Source: Escherichia phage ime
Reading direction: 5' to 3' (one strand)
Length of the DNA: 64,000 nucleotides
Sequence record: MN850576.1
This document shows, in pieces, positions 1,051 through 49,906 of the stretch; position 1 is the stretch's first letter; each line of letters opens with the position of its first letter. Below the pieces are notes generated by a model, which made no database searches, was not told the DNA's origin, and worked only from the letters and a program-made list of their open reading frames with translations. Position numbers and translations under genes: made by a program.

Positions 1051-2607
1051 TTAATTTTCCATGTTGGATATGGAATTATCTCTGGTTGATGATATCTTAG
1101 AAGTGCCGTTGCCAGTGGATCCTGCAGCCATTCCATCACCAGCTCTACTGATGTCCTGGCCCAAGAGCTTCATCAGCTCTTCCTGATCCATGTCCTCGTC
1201 AAATCTTTCATCAAACCCGCCTACTTCAAGAATCTTATTAATTACTGCAGGAGTTTTTGGCAAGTAACCTACAGCACCGATCCTCTGGACAAACTTGGAG
1301 AAGCTCTCCATATCCACTTCTTCAATCAGACCAGGTTTCAGTTTAGGCATATCATCATCTTCAAGGATGATACCATTCAATGCCAGAAGCTGTGGAATAA
1401 GATCCTTATTGAAGGCTTCAGTGATAATATCTATATCACGCTGAACAAAATGACCATGGATAGACTGTTTTGACTCAGACAGAGAGAAGGATCCAACGTT
1501 ATCGTTACCGAGGTTAATAAAGCCAGCACCGAAACGGTCAAGAATCGCCTTCTTACGGGCATCAATCAAATCTTTAGTGGAATACTGCTTACCCATACCG
1601 TCAACCCCCTTCAGGGTCATGGAGTAAAGCTCTTTACCAGACTTATCTCTATCAGACGGAAGTATAAAGAAACTTTGCTCACCACTATGGGCGTTTGCTG
1701 CGTCAAGCATAAGATCTGCAACCATTCTCCCTTCCATTGAATTCGGGTCAATGCTGGCCTTGTTCAAAATATTGGAAGGAATTTTCAGCTCAAGTACACC
1801 ACCAAGGTCTTTGGAACAGCCAACAACCTCAAGGTTTTCAATCAGAACTTTCTCACGGAAAGATCTGTAGCAACCTATCATCGGTGACACACCTGCAGGG
1901 TTAGATTCTGTTCCTGACAGGGTCATGAGCATAAGCTTTTTAGCAGGGATGAAAATTTCAGGCTCATTAAAGCCTTTTGAAGGCATTGCAGCAAGAGGTC
2001 CAGCCCAGCGTGCATTCTGAGTGTTTAGAAATGCATTAGGTGACTGATAAATACCTGTCAGTGTTCTACTATTCTTGTCAAAAACAAACGGCTCTGATCT
2101 GGACAGGCTGGCCTGAGGTCGGAATGCAATTTTATCAATAAGAAGCATCCCGGCATATTTACCTTCTTTCTCTCTGCGGTATACTTTCTCAAACAGTGAA
2201 AAACCATACTCGTTAAAGGTAGCTGCGCTTCTTGCAATATCTCGAAGAGTTTGTTGGTTTGCCAAATTACGCAAAGAATACTCTATAAGCTCGGCAGCTT
2301 TCTTAGAGTCTTCACTTTTAACATTATAAAGGATCTTAAAATCATTGAATGCTTTCGTGATGAAAACATATTTTGTATCTAAGGCAGTAGCAACTGTGGA
2401 ATCACATTTCATAGTCTCCACTGTGGCAATCAGCTGAGGCCAACGCAATTCCTCAACCATCATAGATTGCGATTCTGCCATAATTTGGGAAAGTGCGCCA
2501 GAACCGATCTCACTCATACGAACATTATGAGTTGGTGCGCCTGCGTTCCCAGATTTATTCACAGTTTTGGCTGTGGCGTTGTGTTTCCTGCGGTTCTTTT
2601 TGGACAC
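1051..2607 (-). CDS. putative portal protein
   Basis: 518-aa ORF immediately downstream and co-directional with large terminase; size and position typical of portal; no motif-level confirmation. Confidence 0.5.
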   Translation of the reverse strand: MSKKNRRKHNATAKTVNKSGNAGAPTHNVRMSEIGSGALSQIMAESQSMMVEELRWPQLIATVETMKCDSTVATALDTKYVFITKAFNDFKILYNVKSEDSKKAAELIEYSLRNLANQQTLRDIARSAATFNEYGFSLFEKVYRREKEGKYAGMLLIDKIAFRPQASLSRSEPFVFDKNSRTLTGIYQSPNAFLNTQNARWAGPLAAMPSKGFNEPEIFIPAKKLMLMTLSGTESNPAGVSPMIGCYRSFREKVLIENLEVVGCSKDLGGVLELKIPSNILNKASIDPNSMEGRMVADLMLDAANAHSGEQSFFILPSDRDKSGKELYSMTLKGVDGMGKQYSTKDLIDARKKAILDRFGAGFINLGNDNVGSFSLSESKQSIHGHFVQRDIDIITEAFNKDLIPQLLALNGIILEDDDMPKLKPGLIEEVDMESFSKFVQRIGAVGYLPKTPAVINKILEVGGFDERFDEDMDQEELMKLLGQDISRAGDGMAAGSTGNGTSKISSTRDNSISNMEN

Positions 2608-2707
2608 AAGCTTTACCCCTCAAAACAGTATAACAAAATAGCCCTCGTCAGAGGGCTAGTATCTCCAATTACTTTATTGTACCACATCTAATTAAGATTG
2701 GCAACAC

Positions 2708-4255
2708 TTAGATAAAACGCTTGAACATAGAAGGTGATGAGATTGATGGAATCACACAAGGAAGTGCTACCTCCTCTTTCTCCAGGAAATTAATCGCAGA
2801 AGCTACACAGTCGGCCCAGTCGTCTTTTCTGTTAAATGTTGATCTTTCCCCGTTGAATTTTTCAAGTTCAGTCAGAAATGCTTCCAGAGTATCAGGATGG
2901 AAACTGGATTTTACAATCCTCACCATTCCTTGTTGGGCAAGATTGGCAAAAGGTGAGAACCTTGTCAGTTTAGACTTGTTGGAAGGCATTGGGTCTTCTT
3001 CAACCCTGAACCCTTCGGCAAGCAAGGATCTGGAGGAGGTTAAGAACTCACTCTTACCTGCCTGCCCTGGGTCCACAGAGAAGACGATTATGCAATCATC
3101 ACCATCGAACTGCGCCTGTTTCCTGATGATCACATCTCGTTCACCAGCCTTTTTACAGAACTTGCCTTCCAGACCTGTGGAATACCTCCCGTCATCCACG
3201 TTCTCAGGACAATAATCACCGGACAGGTAATAAAAGCCGTCGCTATCTTTACTTACCTTAACACTGGCAGTAAAGTCAGGAAATTTATTACCGGAAGTTC
3301 TCTCGGTTCCTGCCTTATCCCATGCCCTGCAAGATACTGACCCAAGAGGTACTCTATCGGCATCACGAAGGAAAGATCTTTGAAAATAGTTTGCACCCTC
3401 AGGCTTTGCAAACCAGTTACCATGGAGAAGCTGAGCTTTTTCCAGCTCTGGTAGACCTTCGAGGAAAGCAAGGTATTCTGGGTTGTCTCTCAAACAGACA
3501 GGATTATCGAATATTGTTGCGCCTATGAACGAGAATGACAACGGTCTTGGCTTGATCTCTACGCCAAGTCCGTTAACCGTGGTGTATTTCTCTATCAACT
3601 CTTCTTTAGAGTCTCCCCAGATAAATTCACCGTCGCGTCGGATAAAATATCTTTTCTTACCGCATTTCTCCGGATCTGGATACCCTTCATCGTCCAACCA
3701 CCATCTAACCAGTTTGGCAAGCATGTGTTCTGAATCGGGGTTACAGCTGATAACCATTCTTGATGGATACTTTGACTGAGATCGCAGACGAGACATCAGA
3801 TAGTCTATCTGCTCCCATTCGAACTGCGTGCCCTCATCGAAGCAAACCATGGTGTACTCAAGCCCCTGATGGTTAAGCTTATCTTGTACATACTCCATAT
3901 GGCAGTATTTTACAACAGCTCCCTTTTTGCTTCTATCCCACTTACCAGTGTTCGGATCAAACCGTGGAAAAATGAACTTATGATCCTTCTCTCTGAACTT
4001 TGGCTTAATGTTTTCAGGCAGATCACTGTAAATAGCTACTGCTTTAGGCCATAGTCCACCCTCACCTTCCAACTGTGGGGTTGTTCTTCGGAACATAACC
4101 ACAGAGCTGTGGGGGTCATCAATAATTTTAAGTGGCATCAACTGCAAGAGGAACGACTTGCCAGACCCTGCGGCACCGCCGATTACCAAAATATCTGCAT
4201 CGTTTTCTAGGATCATCTTCTGCTTTTCAGAACACGGTCCGTAAATCTTAGACAT
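2708..4255 (-). CDS. terL: terminase large subunit
   Basis: 515 aa; N-terminal Walker A ILVIGGAAGSGKSF; size and two-domain architecture typical of phage TerL. Confidence 0.8.
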   Translation of the reverse strand: MSKIYGPCSEKQKMILENDADILVIGGAAGSGKSFLLQLMPLKIIDDPHSSVVMFRRTTPQLEGEGGLWPKAVAIYSDLPENIKPKFREKDHKFIFPRFDPNTGKWDRSKKGAVVKYCHMEYVQDKLNHQGLEYTMVCFDEGTQFEWEQIDYLMSRLRSQSKYPSRMVISCNPDSEHMLAKLVRWWLDDEGYPDPEKCGKKRYFIRRDGEFIWGDSKEELIEKYTTVNGLGVEIKPRPLSFSFIGATIFDNPVCLRDNPEYLAFLEGLPELEKAQLLHGNWFAKPEGANYFQRSFLRDADRVPLGSVSCRAWDKAGTERTSGNKFPDFTASVKVSKDSDGFYYLSGDYCPENVDDGRYSTGLEGKFCKKAGERDVIIRKQAQFDGDDCIIVFSVDPGQAGKSEFLTSSRSLLAEGFRVEEDPMPSNKSKLTRFSPFANLAQQGMVRIVKSSFHPDTLEAFLTELEKFNGERSTFNRKDDWADCVASAINFLEKEEVALPCVIPSISSPSMFKRFI

Positions 4256-5603: not shown

Positions 5604-5702
5604 GGTGCTAGGTGATGGAATCGAACCACCTATGTATTCAACGACTACCTCGTCTATTTTCAGGATTAAAAATCCTCGCCCTTGCCAAAGGGCTTACCTA
5701 GC
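5604..5702 (-). tRNA. aberrant tRNA-like element (Lys-TTT-like anticodon arm; about 25-nt insertion in variable region); possible pseudo-tRNA
   Basis: Perfect 7-bp acceptor GCTAGGT/ACCTAGC, D-arm GCCC-TTTGGCAA-GGGC, T-arm GGTGG-TTCGATT-CCATC, anticodon arm AGGA-TTTTTAA-TCCT; about 30 nt between anticodon and T arms; CC but no terminal A encoded. Confidence 0.4.
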
Positions 5703-7269: not shown

Positions 7270-7479
7270 TCAACAGATTCCTGCCTTATCCTTCCTGTCT
7301 GCGTATTCTTTAATCGCAACCTCATCTGCATTAGTGACCAGGTCTTCAAAGTAACTCTCAAGCTCCTCGTCAATGTCAGGAGACCAGCTCTTTTTCCTGT
7401 CAGTGTGAATTGCAGACTTGTTGAACTTATTACAGTTCTTTGCTACCGGGTTGTTCATTAAGCGCTCCTCAGCGTTCAT
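7270..7479 (-). CDS. hypothetical protein
   Basis: 69-aa ORF, co-directional, overlaps next gene start by 11 nt. Confidence 0.35.
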   Translation of the reverse strand: MNAEERLMNNPVAKNCNKFNKSAIHTDRKKSWSPDIDEELESYFEDLVTNADEVAIKEYADRKDKAGIC

Positions 7480-8047
7480 AGTAAATCTTATTTAACATTA
7501 CCTCATCCTTTGCAGAAAGGATATCAAGATATGCATCACCAAATCTTCCTGCAACAACCTCTGCATGATACATCACTTCGTTAACATCGTCAAGAGTGAT
7601 AACCGGATGACCATATCTTTCTGAATATTGTCTCAGGGTGCGATGTAACGAGTCGTCATCATATGCAGACTTTTTAATATCACAAACACGACGAATAGCC
7701 TTGATGTCGAAAAAACCTGTGCGATACCACCCAAGAAAAAGGTTTCGTGCAGTGTCAACATCTACATTGATACCATCAAGAACCTTATCTACAAGATAGC
7801 TGTCATCCTTTGGACCAGCGTCCTTAGTGCGAATGTAGTTGCCATCTTTTCCAGGCGACATCTCCTTCTCATCCCCAACCTGCATGCCATCATTTGGCGG
7901 TGTTAGCCACTTATCCGGATGCTTACGATCACGAGCGTTAGAATGATTACGCTGGAAACCGGGCTTCCACTTGAAAGTTTTCTCCATCTGTTCTTCATTC
8001 TGATAACGTTTTGCAATCTTTTCACGGTCATCTTTGCGTGAACCCAT
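7469..8047 (-). CDS. hypothetical protein
   Basis: 192-aa ORF; GAGGAGG SD immediately upstream of ATG at 8045-8047. Confidence 0.5.
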   Translation of the reverse strand: MGSRKDDREKIAKRYQNEEQMEKTFKWKPGFQRNHSNARDRKHPDKWLTPPNDGMQVGDEKEMSPGKDGNYIRTKDAGPKDDSYLVDKVLDGINVDVDTARNLFLGWYRTGFFDIKAIRRVCDIKKSAYDDDSLHRTLRQYSERYGHPVITLDDVNEVMYHAEVVAGRFGDAYLDILSAKDEVMLNKIYYER

Positions 8048-8132
8048 AGCTGCCTCCTCTTCAAGTTATAGAAAAACTAACTGTATCGCTTTGTAACGAG
8101 CTTTTCTATCAAACTGGTGCGATTGCATTACC

Positions 8133-8141
8133 TGGTATAGT
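8133..8141 (+). promoter_or_regulatory. candidate extended -10 promoter element (TGGTATAGT)
   Basis: TGnTATAGT matches the extended -10 consensus; sits just upstream of the GC-rich ORF-free island. Confidence 0.3.
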
Positions 8142-8149
8142 TTATATAG

Positions 8150-8450
8150 CTGTGGAGCGATTTAGGGGCCTTCTTGTCAGTTTCCACACATAAACTTCAT
8201 CCAAGCTCGCGCGGGAGACTCTCAACCGACTCCTTACGGCGCTGGCAAGCTTTCGTCGGTGGTCCACATCAGTGCTCGGCCTTTGGCCTGCGCTATCGCT
8301 TCGCTCCCACACATGTTAACAGACCTGTATGTATGAACTTCTGTTATTGTGTGCACCAAAGAGGCCCGGCATCTCGCCCCTCGTAGGCGAGTGCCAATGA
8401 AGGGCCGACACTGCCCATAGTAAGTAATAAATTTAAAACATGGTACTTAG
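8150..8450 (+). ncRNA. candidate non-coding RNA (GC-rich ORF-free island between extended -10 and strong terminator)
   Basis: About 250 bp visibly GC-richer than surroundings; only one RBS-less TTG-initiated ORF; bounded by promoter-like element and hairpin plus T-run; no match to any RNA family I can recognise. Confidence 0.25.
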
Positions 8451-8523
8451 GATCTAGTATATTCTACATAAGTTAAGTATATGTACTTGGTACCATAAGT
8501 ACTAGATCTTTTATTTTTTTTTT
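8451..8523 (+). terminator. rho-independent terminator (plus strand), long-loop hairpin plus T-run
   Basis: GATCTAGTA (8451-8459) pairs with TACTAGATC (8500-8508), followed by TTTTATTTTTTTTTT. Confidence 0.5.
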
Positions 8524-8555
8524 ATTATTTAGTTATTTTAGTTATATTCTTTATG

Positions 8556-8636
8556 TGTCCGTATCACGGACAGTTAGTGTCCGTATTACGGGCAGATGTG
8601 TCCGCGTGACGGACAGTAGTGTCCGTATCACGGACA
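8556..8636. repeat. array of four phased 17-bp palindromes TGTCCGYRTNACGGRCA (operator- or iteron-like)
   Basis: Copies at 8556-8572, 8578-8594, 8599-8615, 8620-8636 (21-22 bp period) plus degenerate fifth copy about 8643-8662; half-sites TGTCCGT / ACGGACA. Confidence 0.8.
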
Positions 8637-8711
8637 GTTAATAGTATCCGTTCCATGGCGAACATAAAACATACGAATCCTTATAGTACAGATATTTAAG
8701 TTTTTACTGGT

Positions 8712-9062
8712 CTAACCAGTTGTTGACATCCGAATAACTTCTTCTGGTGGCAAAACTTTGGAAAATGTGCATCTTTTACCTCTCCCTTGTGTGGATGTCT
8801 CAACCACTCCTGCACATTCTAAAGTTTTAACGCACGCTGCTGCTTTTGTTTTCTTTATCCCAACATCTGCTGCAATTTTCCTTGTGCTTGGTGTGAAGCG
8901 TGAATTTCCTCCAAGCTTATACCAGTTATGCAGGTAGCAGTATACGATCTTGTCATACAAGTCAAGAACAACAACCTCCCCAGTTGTGTCATTCAAAACT
9001 TTTGACATAGATAGTATTTCAAGGGGGACTTTAAGATATAGCAGCTTATCCCCATCTTTCAT
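8712..9062 (-). CDS. putative helix-turn-helix DNA-binding protein
   Basis: 116 aa; C-terminal segment STRKIAADVGIKKTKAAACVKTLECAGVV resembles a winged-HTH recognition region; adjacent to palindrome array. Confidence 0.45.
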   Translation of the reverse strand: MKDGDKLLYLKVPLEILSMSKVLNDTTGEVVVLDLYDKIVYCYLHNWYKLGGNSRFTPSTRKIAADVGIKKTKAAACVKTLECAGVVETSTQGRGKRCTFSKVLPPEEVIRMSTTG

Positions 9063-9109
9063 ATCTCCTGATTCTCCTTGTGTGGCAATTTTCTTTAAAA
9101 TAGCAGGGA

Positions 9110-9664
9110 TTACTCCCTGCTGTCAATATCAAAACTCATTGCAATACGGTATGCCTCTTCTAATGGTAAGAGTCTCCCCCACACATCCCAACCGACATCA
9201 AGCTGCCTGCCAAACAACTGTTGTGTGGTTCCGTGAGCATGACCGAACAGTTGGACTGATCCGTGAGGCTTTCTGTTCCACTTTGCAAACTGGTAATGGC
9301 TCATACAGATCAAATTCTTGTTGTGGCGAAGCTCGTAATAATCTACAACCTCATGACCGAACTCTTTCATAATTCTGACAGTCGTCCTTGTGTCATGGTT
9401 GCCACGAACAAGAATAATATGTCCGTTCAACATATTTAGAATATCTGGAAGCAAGTTGTTGATATTCTTATCATTAGTGCACGCAATATCTCCCAAGTGG
9501 AACACAGTGTCTGCAGGTGACACAACAGAGTTCCACTCGGCGATGATTCCCGCATTCATACTGTCAAGATTGTGATCATACTGAGATCTGTGTTTTTGAC
9601 ATGAATCAAACTCCATGACCCGCTGGTGGAGAAAGTGTGTGTCGCTTGTTACAAAGTATTTCAT
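9110..9664 (-). CDS. calcineurin-like metallophosphoesterase
   Basis: Starts MKYFVTSDTHF; motifs GDIACTNDKN and GNHD typical of metallophosphoesterases; ORF track start trimmed to Met at 9662-9664 with GAGGA SD; directly follows kinase stop. Confidence 0.7.
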   Translation of the reverse strand: MKYFVTSDTHFLHQRVMEFDSCQKHRSQYDHNLDSMNAGIIAEWNSVVSPADTVFHLGDIACTNDKNINNLLPDILNMLNGHIILVRGNHDTRTTVRIMKEFGHEVVDYYELRHNKNLICMSHYQFAKWNRKPHGSVQLFGHAHGTTQQLFGRQLDVGWDVWGRLLPLEEAYRIAMSFDIDSRE

Positions 9665-47417: not shown

Positions 47418-47546
47418 CACACAATTAGCTGCCAGGCTAAAGTGCTGGAAGCGCACCTATAACACATCTTTCAACTAAATTTCCTACCACCACAATCACT
47501 TACCTCCCACACATGACTGTTTGCTTGTTTAGTGAGCAGTCATGCC

Positions 47547-47574
47547 TTGACATTCTTGCCTATCCTGATAAAAT
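47547..47574 (+). promoter_or_regulatory. sigma70-like promoter (TTGACA-N16-TAAAAT) facing an ORF-free region
   Basis: -35 47547-47552, -10 47569-47574; no ORF of 60 aa or more downstream on plus strand for over 2 kb. Confidence 0.45.
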
Positions 47575-47579
47575 TAAGT

Positions 47580-47860
47580 TCTTCTCTTTTCTTTTACCGA
47601 GTAATTCGGGTTTTCTGTTCTCTTCGGTTTGAAGGGGTATGGAGATACACCTGAGTGAACAGGGTGAACAACCGAACCATTGGCTATGGCATTAGCATGG
47701 CGAAGCGGACGGGTGACGAAAGAGGGGCCGGAGGACACCAGTCACTGCCATATGGTATATGGGTGATAACCTGAAGAGTCTGAATAAGTGTTTAAGTACC
47801 AGTCAGAGGAAAAGGTGAATGGTAGCCGAAGGGGGAGGGGGGTTTCTTGTATCTTTAATT
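47580..47860 (+). ncRNA. candidate non-coding transcript (unclassified)
   Basis: Promoter-proximal ORF-free stretch with locally elevated GC and G-rich tract (GAAGGGGGAGGGGGG) followed by TTTCTTGTATCTTT. Confidence 0.2.
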
Positions 47861-48912
47861 TGTATATTATGTATACACTTGTAAACCAATCTCATCTGAA
47901 TCTGTTTACCACACAAAGCGGATAGAGACAAATATCACCTATTAAACTTGAATTATTTATAGAAAATACCACAACACCACTTAAGTCTTTGATTTTACAC
48001 ACAAATCCTACAGATATTCAACCTCCATATTTAACATACTTGTAACATATTCCATACTCTACCTGTCTGATCAATCTACCCAACCACATCCTTCATATTT
48101 TCCCTGTCTGTACCACCCCTGCCCCGCCGGGAGTCCCGTCATATCTGGCTTTCCAGTAAATAGCACACCCACAAATATCATTGCCTGAAGAGGGTTTCAT
48201 CCCATAATACATGCCTTACCTGAAGAGCGCTTCATACACCACGTAAATTTTTTAATTGACCTGCAATTTTCCCGTCATGACCCCCCCCCTGCCCCGCCGG
48301 AGAGGTTGGCTTTTCCCACACAGACCTGAAGAGTCAGCCAGAAATATCTGAACAGGTCCAGTTCTGCCTTGTCATGAGCCGTAGCGACTGGAGTGCTGCC
48401 AGGCGGACGGAATGGGAATACTTCTCATTCTTATAATAATTCTCAAATATCGAGGCAGTGAGGCAAATTAATAGGTGAGGCCGTTCACACAGTGGCACAA
48501 CATTTGCAATCTATTTTGTGAGGGTGAATGAGAATACCTATCATTGTGAGAACCTTTATCATTACGGGCAATTTAACATAATACCCATTATGCGCACCAC
48601 TGGCGATACATACAGGGATTGATACCATGAGTTACAGTTTACGCATATAACAATCATATTTCTTACTATTTGTGTGGGATATAGTTAGCAACCAATAGAT
48701 TAGATATTGACCTACAGACTTCCAACCGTCTAGACGTCTAAACGCCCACACACCAAGGGTTATACATACATTACTGAATGTAAACAGGGCCGCAAAAATG
48801 CTACCATACCAGTTTGTAAATTTTTCATGCAGCACTTGACAAAGAGGAGAAAAACTTGTCTGACATAATGTGACCTAACTGACACAACATGACACTTTTA
48901 CACACCTATTAG

Positions 48913-48984
48913 TTTACACACTGGATTGTTTACATTCCTGATTGTTCACATGCTAACCATTTACATGATTGACTGTTTACACAC
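48913..48984. repeat. iteron-like direct repeats (five TTTACA/TTCACA copies, loosely DnaA-box-like)
   Basis: GTTTACACA 48913-48921, TGTTTACAT 48927-48935, TTGTTCACA 48942-48950, ATTTACAT 48959-48966, TGTTTACACA 48975-48984; further copies near 49395-49455. Confidence 0.55.
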
Positions 48985-48993
48985 CGATAATCA

Positions 48994-49251
48994 GCCATGC
49001 CATTCGTTTGCATGACAATAATTATACATGACAATAATCGCACTGATTATAATTAGCATGACATAATATAAAAGCAGGGCAACTATTAGCAGATCTATAG
49101 TTGCCTTGCTTGTTATGTCATGATTAACTAAATACAAGGCAACTATGATCTGATTAATAGTTTGCAGACAAACTATCACGGGGGTGATGGTTACTGCTTT
49201 TATATTATGTCGCGACTCCGTCGCGCCATGCCATTCGTTTGCATAGTTGCC
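48994..49251. repeat. composite repeat: 20-bp direct repeat, 18-20 bp inverted repeat, four GGCAACTAT/ATAGTTGCC copies
   Basis: GCCATGCCATTCGTTTGCAT at 48994-49013 and 49225-49244; ATGACATAATATAAAAGCAG 49058-49077 vs its reverse complement 49194-49211; GGCAACTAT at 49078, 49138 and ATAGTTGCC at 49097, 49243. Confidence 0.7.
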
Positions 49252-49861
49252 TTATTGTTACAGATAAAATAATTGTATTGTTAATTATTTCTTATCTTTC
49301 TATTAGTCATCTAATGATTTCAGTTAATATAGTAACGTACAGTAAACATTAGACGACTAAAGATTTCTCTGCTTATGGTAACCTAACGTGACAATTCCAG
49401 ACTGTTTACGAAAAATGTTGACACCTGGGCCGATTTATGTTATGCAGTTTACACGAATAATTATTTTATGCAGGTATTGACTATTCCGTTATTCTATGGT
49501 TGGAATAAATGCTTAGCAGGCTATAGAATGGCGAGCGTACGTAAATTCTGAGATCTGGCGGCTATAGTTATACTCGATTTTTCACGTAGAAAACGCTTTT
49601 GTAGCTATGTAAGTGTATGACTTATAAAGATTTTTAGTTGTTGACAAGATATTGGAGATGTGCATCAGATTAAATTTTGTGCAATAGCTACATTACGTGC
49701 ACTTTTGGAAGAAAAAACGTGTAAAAATGGCCCTGCTACCACACAATGAAAGATTATGCAATAGTTATTTTATATGTATATTTGTACAGTGTGTGGGATT
49801 AATGGCTAGTCAATTATTCCACTTGCCAGGTAGGGCCGTTTATGGTAGGAGAAGAGCAGAC

Positions 49862-49886
49862 AAAAAGAAAGGGGCCTTTAAGCCCC
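49862..49886 (-). terminator. rho-independent terminator (minus strand)
   Basis: On minus strand GGGGC...GCCCC hairpin followed by TTTCTTTTTG; downstream of gene 49907-50326. Confidence 0.55.
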
Positions 49887-49906
49887 TTGATAATTCAGTT
49901 AAGAAA

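Follow-up and report, generated by a model that had tools for sequence, protein, structure and literature searches.

The four tandem palindromes that lie beside a small winged-helix gene in rV5-like phages of Escherichia coli are probably the iterons of a replication origin, and the 116-aa product of that gene, a predicted stand-alone RepA_N-like domain, is the candidate for the protein that binds them. The array was analyzed in a window of 64,000 nucleotides (the whole stretch of DNA under study, from Escherichia phage ime, record MN850576.1), to which all coordinates refer unless another genome is named. The initial annotation had offered an operator array or replication iterons as the meaning of the sites. 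This pair of readings was upheld, and the iteron side of it is favored because of the homology of the presumed binder, the least stable duplex, which abuts the sites, and the recurrence of gene, sites and AT-rich tract as a triad in other phage genera. An initiator-type domain, a phased cluster of dyads, an unstable duplex and a triad whose parts co-vary together give the locus the anatomy of an iteron origin.

The array and its genomic context

Positions 8300-9100 of the window match 118 phage records at 90-99% identity, and almost all of these come from Vequintavirus (rV5-like) myophages of E. coli; on this sequence identity the window is assigned to such a phage. Eighteen public records that match the E. 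coli rV5-like sequence at ∼90-98% identity are labelled 'Campylobacter phage' (the A147 record is marked UNVERIFIED). The array is situated in a 664-bp gap without real genes (8048-8711), between two minus-strand genes (Table 1). A cluster of seven tRNA genes lies to the left of the first of these, and plus-strand genes begin at ∼10160; all genes near the array are read leftward, which places the array upstream of a leftward unit. The tRNA cluster includes a tRNA-like gene of 99 nt (5604-5702, minus strand), for which ARAGORN reports the anticodon 'atcc'; GenBank records list it as tRNA-OTHER or as a 97-nt tRNA-Lys, and as a tRNA it scores low with Rfam (35.5 bits).

Table 1. Features in and around the palindrome array (window coordinates).
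Feature	Position	Strand	Remarks
Gene of unknown function	7469-8047	-	Left border of the gap that holds the array
Near-invariant AT-rich block	8425-8510		Inverted GATC motifs GATCTAGTA / TACTAGATC and GTAC-rich repeats
AT-rich tract, candidate DNA-unwinding element	8503-8554		Abuts iteron 1; 10% G+C over 50 bp (8503-8552)
oriC-13-mer-like sequence, GATCTTTTATTTT	8505-8517	+	Only occurrence of the E. coli 13-mer consensus in the window
Iteron 1, GTGTCCGTATCACGGACAGTTA	8555-8576		Perfect palindrome TGTCCGT-ATC-ACGGACA at 8556-8572, 0 mismatches
Iteron 2, GTGTCCGTATTACGGGCAGAT	8577-8597		Palindrome at 8578-8594, 1 mismatch
Iteron 3, GTGTCCGCGTGACGGACAGTA	8598-8618		Palindrome at 8599-8615, 1 mismatch
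Iteron 4, GTGTCCGTATCACGGACAGTTA	8619-8640		Perfect palindrome at 8620-8636, 0 mismatches
Spacer holding the earlier 'fifth site'	8641-8668		Variable; not counted in the functional array
Winged-helix gene, 116 aa	8712-9062	-	Right border of the gap; candidate iteron binder
Promoter, sigma-70-type, TTGACA-18-TATTTT with TG	9097-9126	-	Upstream of the winged-helix gene; P76 annotated in the rV5 record

The array consists of four units of 21 or 22 bp (8555-8640), with start-to-start distances of 22, 21 and 21 bp. The palindromes of the type TGTCCGT-N3-ACGGACA, which had been described at a spacing of 21-22 bp, are all present (0, 1, 1 and 0 mismatches), and the array lies 72 bp past the stop codon of the minus-strand gene 8712-9062, in agreement with its earlier placement 3' of that gene. 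The central spacers of the rV5 sites are ATC, ATT and GTG, and the flanks of the units (GTG...GTTA) are conserved. With a Tandem Repeats Finder score of 110-126, this is by far the strongest array of the window, and some GenBank records tag it as an automatic "repeat_region". The search for the palindrome elsewhere, which had been suggested as a check, returned no further copy with at most one mismatch, either in the 64-kb window or in the complete rV5 genome of 137,947 bp, such that the array is single in both. Four near-perfect copies of a palindrome with 14 specified bases within 86 bp cannot be a product of chance. The 'degenerate fifth' palindrome of the initial annotation (8645-8661, TATCCGTTCCATGGCGA) was rejected, since its distance of 25 bp from site 4 breaks the register, and since it carries mismatches at 4 of the 14 positions and falls within the most variable stretch of the alignment of 14 phages, which is also the least conserved part of the intergenic region.

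Conservation within the genus was assessed in that alignment of 14 phage genomes. The arms of the palindromes are kept in all 14, and the neighboring spacer 8641-8668 diverges freely. Iteron 1 is retained in 13, FFH2 being without the whole unit, and the number of copies is 2 (YN3), 3 (A147 and FFH2) or 4. Whole units have thus been gained or lost within the genus while the sites themselves stay conserved. In iteron 3 of a divergent clade, both inner bases of the arms are altered together (to TGTCCGC-GTG-GCGGACA), and pairing is kept. Gain and loss of entire units, from two to four copies, is also the behavior of slippage-prone repeats, and would be expected of a neutral tandem duplication that has no function. 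Such an origin of the array is very improbable, in view of the constancy of the arms in 14 of 14 genomes against the free divergence of the adjoining spacer, the invariable retention of at least two copies, and the occurrence of analogous arrays, with other sequences, beside homologous genes in distant genera.

Transcription from the promoter of the winged-helix gene (Table 1) would run toward the array. No intrinsic terminator was found in or beside the array, or between the gene and the array, and no T-run follows any of the stems; transcripts should therefore reach the iterons and the AT tract. In a scan that is blind to phage-specific promoters, no sigma-70 promoter was detected within 8400-8700, including the array and the AT tract. 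A search of the intergenic region against Rfam gave one noise match and nothing else. As a single strand the array folds far above shuffled sequence (z = -7.5). This score, the placement of the array past the 3' end of the gene (on the strand that is transcribed, no terminator intervening), and the pairing retained by the symmetric change in iteron 3 would all fit a role as hairpins, either in the 3' UTR of the winged-helix mRNA (as stabilizers, processing sites or attenuators) or in unwound DNA, where they would prime synthesis with no dedicated binding protein. We regard this role as quite improbable. The fold score follows trivially from palindromy, symmetric changes of the arms suit a dimer-binding site equally well, and stems that are not followed by a T-run are not intrinsic terminators. 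Moreover, the palindromes of the other genera lie upstream of the gene, outside a 3' UTR, and the register of 21-22 bp together with the conserved flanks is suited to recognition of the duplex by a dimer.

The distribution of the array in public records was examined with exact patterns (the palindrome or two adjacent units). In IMG/VR only scattered chance matches appeared, with no array outside Vequintavirus loci; in the same scans of metagenomes and GTDB genomes, the matches listed were likewise scattered and attributable to chance, with no array outside Vequintavirus loci among them. None of 5,426 complete E. coli genomes carries matching iterons. The sole match in PLSDB, CP057073.1 (137,565 bp, from an E. 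coli of cattle feces; array 98.9% identical), is evidently an rV5-like phage genome that has been filed as a plasmid. Three metagenomic Vequintavirus contigs (L356, L362 and L363) end 110-170 bp past the winged-helix gene, at or within the array, an outcome to be expected of a tandem repeat; the array therefore interrupts short-read assembly. An unrelated viral contig (L088, IMGVR_UViG_3300042691_021677) contains, at 2303-3421, three exact TGTCCGT-N3-ACGGACA sequences dispersed over 1.1 kb.

These records also bear on other conceivable DNA-level functions of the protein and its sites. The array could organize the genome or act in the manner of a centromere, be a hotspot of packaging or recombination, or provide a decoy or a means of immunity against RepA_N-type satellites. 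Reuse of a RepA_N-type binding domain in the conflict of phages with satellites has a precedent in Odn of phage ICP1, where it is fused to a nuclease that cuts the iterons of PLE (PMC8263062), and the difference in copy number among closely related phages would be in keeping with a function of this kind. We nonetheless consider such functions improbable: the iterons are missing from the complete E. coli genomes and their only PLSDB match is a phage, no gene for a nuclease or a partition ATPase adjoins the array, and the conserved AT tract that abuts it would be left unexplained.

The AT-rich tract and the remainder of the intergenic region

The tract that abuts iteron 1 is T-rich, with T-rich sub-repeats of 9-11 bp, and no 40-bp duplex of the 64-kb window is less stable than the one found in it at 8508-8547. 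In the whole rV5 genome of 137,947 bp the least stable 40-bp duplex is at 65110, and the array is at 65152. The match to the 13-mer consensus of E. coli oriC (GATCTnTTnTTTT, reportedly defined by Bramhill and Kornberg) is a match to a short motif of low complexity, for which ∼0.14 chance matches are expected per window and at least one was seen in 13 of 100 shuffled sequences. No DnaA box (TTWTNCACA) occurs between 2563 and 16969; such boxes are present in many, though not all, iteron origins.

The block that precedes and partly overlaps the tract (8425-8510, ∼85 bp, with two GATC sites) is more conserved than the flanking coding DNA, and could be an auxiliary element of the origin or a (phage-specific) promoter for the leftward unit. 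The same intergenic gap also includes a conserved GC-rich block at ∼8190-8420 (55-63% G+C in a genome of 43%), from which a 17-nt segment at ∼8327-8343 is missing in rV5 and A147. An ORF at 8142-8312 (minus strand; ORF78 in rV5) displays no codon-position bias, its variable sites being distributed 10/10/12 among the three positions, and the fold of the block is marginally above that of shuffled sequences (z of ∼-1.8 on either strand), with no Rfam match. The GC-rich block is thus neither clearly coding nor clearly a structured RNA.

A second repeat-rich locus was observed at 47450-49900, where ∼2.5 kb without convincing ORFs correspond to the unannotated gap at 104.0-106.6 kb of rV5, a convergent gene junction. 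This region, especially at 48990-49330, carries nested palindromes (GGCAACTAT-N10-ATAGTTGCC, with GATC at the center) as well as an 18-bp inverted repeat (49060/49194) and a 20-nt direct repeat (48994/49225), both perfect, and these adjoin a tract (49252-49330) that ranks second in the window for AT content. No Rfam match was obtained for 47450-49900, and the locus is less conserved in the genus than that of the iterons. It could be a second cis-acting site, for example an origin, a terminus or a packaging site. As a repeat-rich, AT-rich and non-coding locus that could itself serve as the origin, 48990-49330 was counted against the assignment of that function to the array.

The cumulative GC-skew minimum of rV5 lies ∼1 kb from the array, and was discounted as evidence for an origin because it coincides with the switch in gene orientation. 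In the paper describing the rV5 genome, the origin could not be defined, and skew analysis gave only the changes in the orientation of transcription (PMC3606486). No published description of an origin or of iterons was found for the rV5-like group.

The 116-aa protein and its relatives in other genera

In the rV5 record the product of the neighboring gene is annotated as a putative transcriptional regulator, and in some GenBank records as "replication initiation protein". Its Pfam matches are both below threshold (HTH_36, 24.5 bits against a cut-off of 25; DUF6945, 27.4 against 28), and the RepA_N family (PF06970) was absent among the Pfam matches at E≤1. The protein matches PHROG 12838, 'replication initiation protein', at 5e-80, and other initiator and DnaD-like PHROGs more weakly. 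No close relatives were found outside Vequintavirus, the search of IMG/VR being empty, and an exhaustive HMMER search yielded only a few distant ones.

Among PDB sequences the top match is 4RO3 (E=3e-6), and a profile built from eight members of the family recovers 4RO3 at E=1.6e-16 across nearly the whole domain. The other profile matches in the PDB, MarR, CodY and GntR among them, are weak (E≥0.002). The 4RO3 entry is the N-terminal domain of the RepA of the Vibrio cholerae satellite PLE, a RepA_N-type initiator. EMSA and deletion analysis established that PLE RepA binds semi-palindromic iterons at the PLE origin, and both RepA and the iterons are needed for PLE replication (PMC7145576; PMC8263062). 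The structural comparison used an alignment-based AlphaFold2 model (pLDDT 75, pTM 0.70), the single-sequence model (pLDDT 39) being unusable. With the former, Foldseek again placed 4RO3 first in the PDB (TM 0.63), followed by the staphylococcal RepA_N initiators 4PQL, 4PT7, 5KBJ (a Rep-iteron complex) and 4PTA (TM ∼0.54), which outrank most of the generic winged-helix repressors in the list. The protein ends after the winged-helix domain. From the profile and Foldseek matches we infer that it is a stand-alone RepA_N-like N-terminal domain of the winged-helix, DnaD-NTD-like fold, without a C-terminal domain. The HTH gene of the initial annotation thus does specify a predicted DNA-binding fold of the winged-helix type, but its product is a homolog of an initiator domain and not a generic HTH regulator.

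The distant homologs are encoded by small stand-alone genes (105-136 aa) in four phages, namely Erwinia phage pEp_SNUABM_01, Klebsiella phage DP, Salmonella phage PVP-SE1 (a weaker relative) and Pseudomonas phage phiPMW, and in two metagenomic contigs. Each of these genes adjoins its own two or three tandem palindromes, the sequence of which differs by protein subfamily: two copies of the type TGCTCAA-T-TTGAGCA in the Erwinia and Klebsiella phages and the two metagenomic contigs, two of ATTCCC-N4-GGGAAT in PVP-SE1, and three of GGACA-AAA-TGTCC in phiPMW. The sites are 23-24 bp apart, with one additional gap of 33 bp in phiPMW. For the rV5-like sites the mean spacing, 21.3 bp, amounts to about two turns of the helix, in keeping with the same-face phasing that had been proposed for the array; strict phasing of this kind is not conserved in the relatives. 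A/T-rich centers are present in sites of the relatives (AAA in phiPMW, AATTT in the Erwinia and Klebsiella phages, AAAAA in one copy of PVP-SE1). In each relative, the least stable 40-mer of the 5-10-kb locus is within ∼60 bp of the sites, and AGATCT, with a T-run behind it, opens the AT tract of every enterobacterial example examined, just as it does in rV5.

The order gene, sites, AT tract was observed in 6 of the 7 cases. In the other genera the sites are located 10-110 bp upstream of the start codon, in the divergent promoter region of the gene; in the rV5-like phages the gene is flipped, with its 3' end toward the sites. Proximity of the gene to the sites is therefore conserved, but overlap of the sites with its promoter is not. 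At the locus of a longer homolog (P0016, on L370) there are no clean tandem palindromes, and the triad is thus unsupported for that subgroup. Two other long homologs (P0009, 194 aa, and P0011, 217 aa, on L364) have an acidic C-terminal tail that ends in D-E-A-P-F or D-A-P-F. The C-terminal tip of bacterial SSB is DDDIPF. By analogy, this SSB-like tail hints at the recruitment of a partner, a capacity that would be absent from the 116-aa protein.

The arrangement in the other genera also favors a transcriptional operator, which is the main rival of the origin. In this alternative, the 116-aa protein would bind the four sites cooperatively as a regulatory array, repressing or activating a leftward unit that is transcribed from the AT-rich block through the GC-rich segment, gene 7469-8047 and the tRNA cluster, or else blocking read-through from the winged-helix gene itself. 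Sites upstream of the start codon, in a divergent promoter region, are where an operator would be expected; the near-invariance of 8425-8510 is that of a possible promoter; the array stands upstream of genes that are leftward throughout; and both the annotation in the rV5 record and the weak matches to generic winged-helix repressors are compatible with a regulator. We judge an operator to be rather unlikely as the explanation of the array. All of the significant relatives whose function is known are replication initiators, the promoter scan (which did not extend to phage-specific promoters) showed nothing of the sigma-70 type at or next to the array and the AT tract, and there is one target locus in 138 kb. 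In addition, the position of the rV5 sites downstream of the gene means that autoregulation at the promoter has been lost and adjacency has been kept, and the duplex alongside is the least stable of the genome, an extreme that a promoter can do without. The two functions could also coexist, as in iteron plasmids, in which Rep autoregulates its own synthesis.

The candidate origin and comparison with known replicons

The assignment of the array as a probable origin draws on direct repeats of 21-22 bp, an adjacent AT-rich region and a gene alongside that is related to initiators by homology, as in iteron origins; the confinement of the palindrome to a single locus in the 138-kb genome was also counted in its favor. 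On the other side, the 116-aa protein is missing the C-terminal domain that is essential in characterized RepA_N initiators and so may only bind DNA, AT-rich DNA is also expected at promoters, the upstream sites in other genera suit autoregulation equally well, and the spacers of the rV5 sites (ATC, ATT and GTG) are without the A-tract typical of RepA_N iterons.

By analogy with the RepA_N, lambda and P1 precedents, we infer the following course of events. The 116-aa protein would be made early, from a host-type promoter, and its dimers would occupy each 7-3-7 palindrome. With about two turns of the helix from one site to the next, the dimers would be aligned on one face of the DNA and could oligomerize, as do the N-terminal domains of RepA_N proteins. 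The resulting bending or wrapping may melt the abutting 50-bp AT tract, on which the T7-gp4-like primase-helicase of the phage, possibly together with an SF1B/Pif1-like helicase, would be loaded and replication would start. Read-through transcription from the promoter of the winged-helix gene may assist the opening.

Like the rV5 locus, the PLE replicon combines a homologous N-terminal DNA-binding domain with a small set of semi-palindromic iterons that lie in tandem between genes. In PLE, binding domain and origin vary together as one module (PMC8263062), and the same is seen across the phage genera described here. Replication of PLE depends on a phage SF1B helicase. A PIF1/RecD-like helicase is encoded in the rV5 genome (PMC3606486). 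The two systems differ in the number and size of the iterons (three of ∼30 bp in PLE, four of 21-22 bp in the rV5-like array) and in the nature of the replicon, PLE being a satellite of a Vibrio phage and the rV5-like genome that of a large virulent E. coli phage. The sequence identity is only ∼28%. Furthermore, the phage protein ends with its N-terminal domain and has no counterpart of the conserved C-terminal domain to which, in PLE RepA, recruitment of the replisome is ascribed.

In RepA_N plasmids of Firmicutes (pSK41 and pTZ2162), the winged-helix domain of ∼120 aa is similar in size to the 116-aa protein, and the fold is comparable at a TM of ∼0.54; the 120-aa N-terminal domain of pSK41 Rep binds four Rep boxes (PMC5703833). 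The iterons of these plasmids are semi-palindromic, as are the phage sites, and are bound by dimers whose N-terminal domains oligomerize. In contrast to rV5, their origin is inside the rep gene and the arms of their sites converge on an A-tract; moreover, their essential C-terminal domain, which binds the host DnaG, is absent in the phage protein.

Similarities to better-known origins are confined to architecture. The lambda origin comprises four dyad-symmetric iterons, which are bound by O dimers, and an adjacent AT-rich region of ∼40 bp, and the four dyads beside an AT-rich region in the rV5-like phages resemble it; unlike the rV5 locus, the lambda origin is within the O gene, and O has a C-terminal domain that binds P. 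In oriR of P1, a GATC-containing AT-rich region is followed by iterons and the rep gene, and DnaA boxes are needed. The same layout is found in the Erwinia, Klebsiella and PVP-SE1 relatives, and in rV5 with the gene flipped, but no DnaA boxes are near the rV5-like array. No sequence relationship of the 116-aa protein to O or to the Rep_3-type RepA was detectable. As in E. coli oriC, the AT tract has a perfect match to the 13-mer consensus at its outer edge, with GATC at the start; oriC, however, has three 13-mers, and the tract has a single copy with no DnaA boxes.

If the array is merely an operator, it is an ordinary regulatory site. As an origin, it would have wider consequences. The rV5-like phages are widely isolated and are candidates for therapy and biocontrol, and the locus provides them with a concrete candidate for both the origin and the initiator; a defined origin would be useful for phage engineering and for the reading of read-depth profiles. 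The RepA_N/PLE-RepA type of iteron replicon would be extended to large virulent phages of Gram-negative bacteria. The lack of a C-terminal domain could be the feature that sets the rV5-like iteron origin apart, and it raises the question of how an initiator would function without the domain that plasmid RepA_N proteins need. A more tentative proposal, which we consider possible though not probable, is that large virulent phages of Enterobacteria and Pseudomonas (Vequintavirinae, Plaisancevirus) share a minimal origin module of two parts. The module may consist of a stand-alone RepA_N-like N-terminal domain of ∼105-136 aa, lacking a C-terminal domain for recruitment, and two to four cognate palindromic iterons that abut a T-rich unwinding element headed by GATC. 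In that case, a bare domain for DNA binding and oligomerization would suffice to open an origin for a T7-type primase-helicase, and the phage module would be an evolutionary sibling, or the source, of the RepA_N replicon of the Vibrio satellite PLE.
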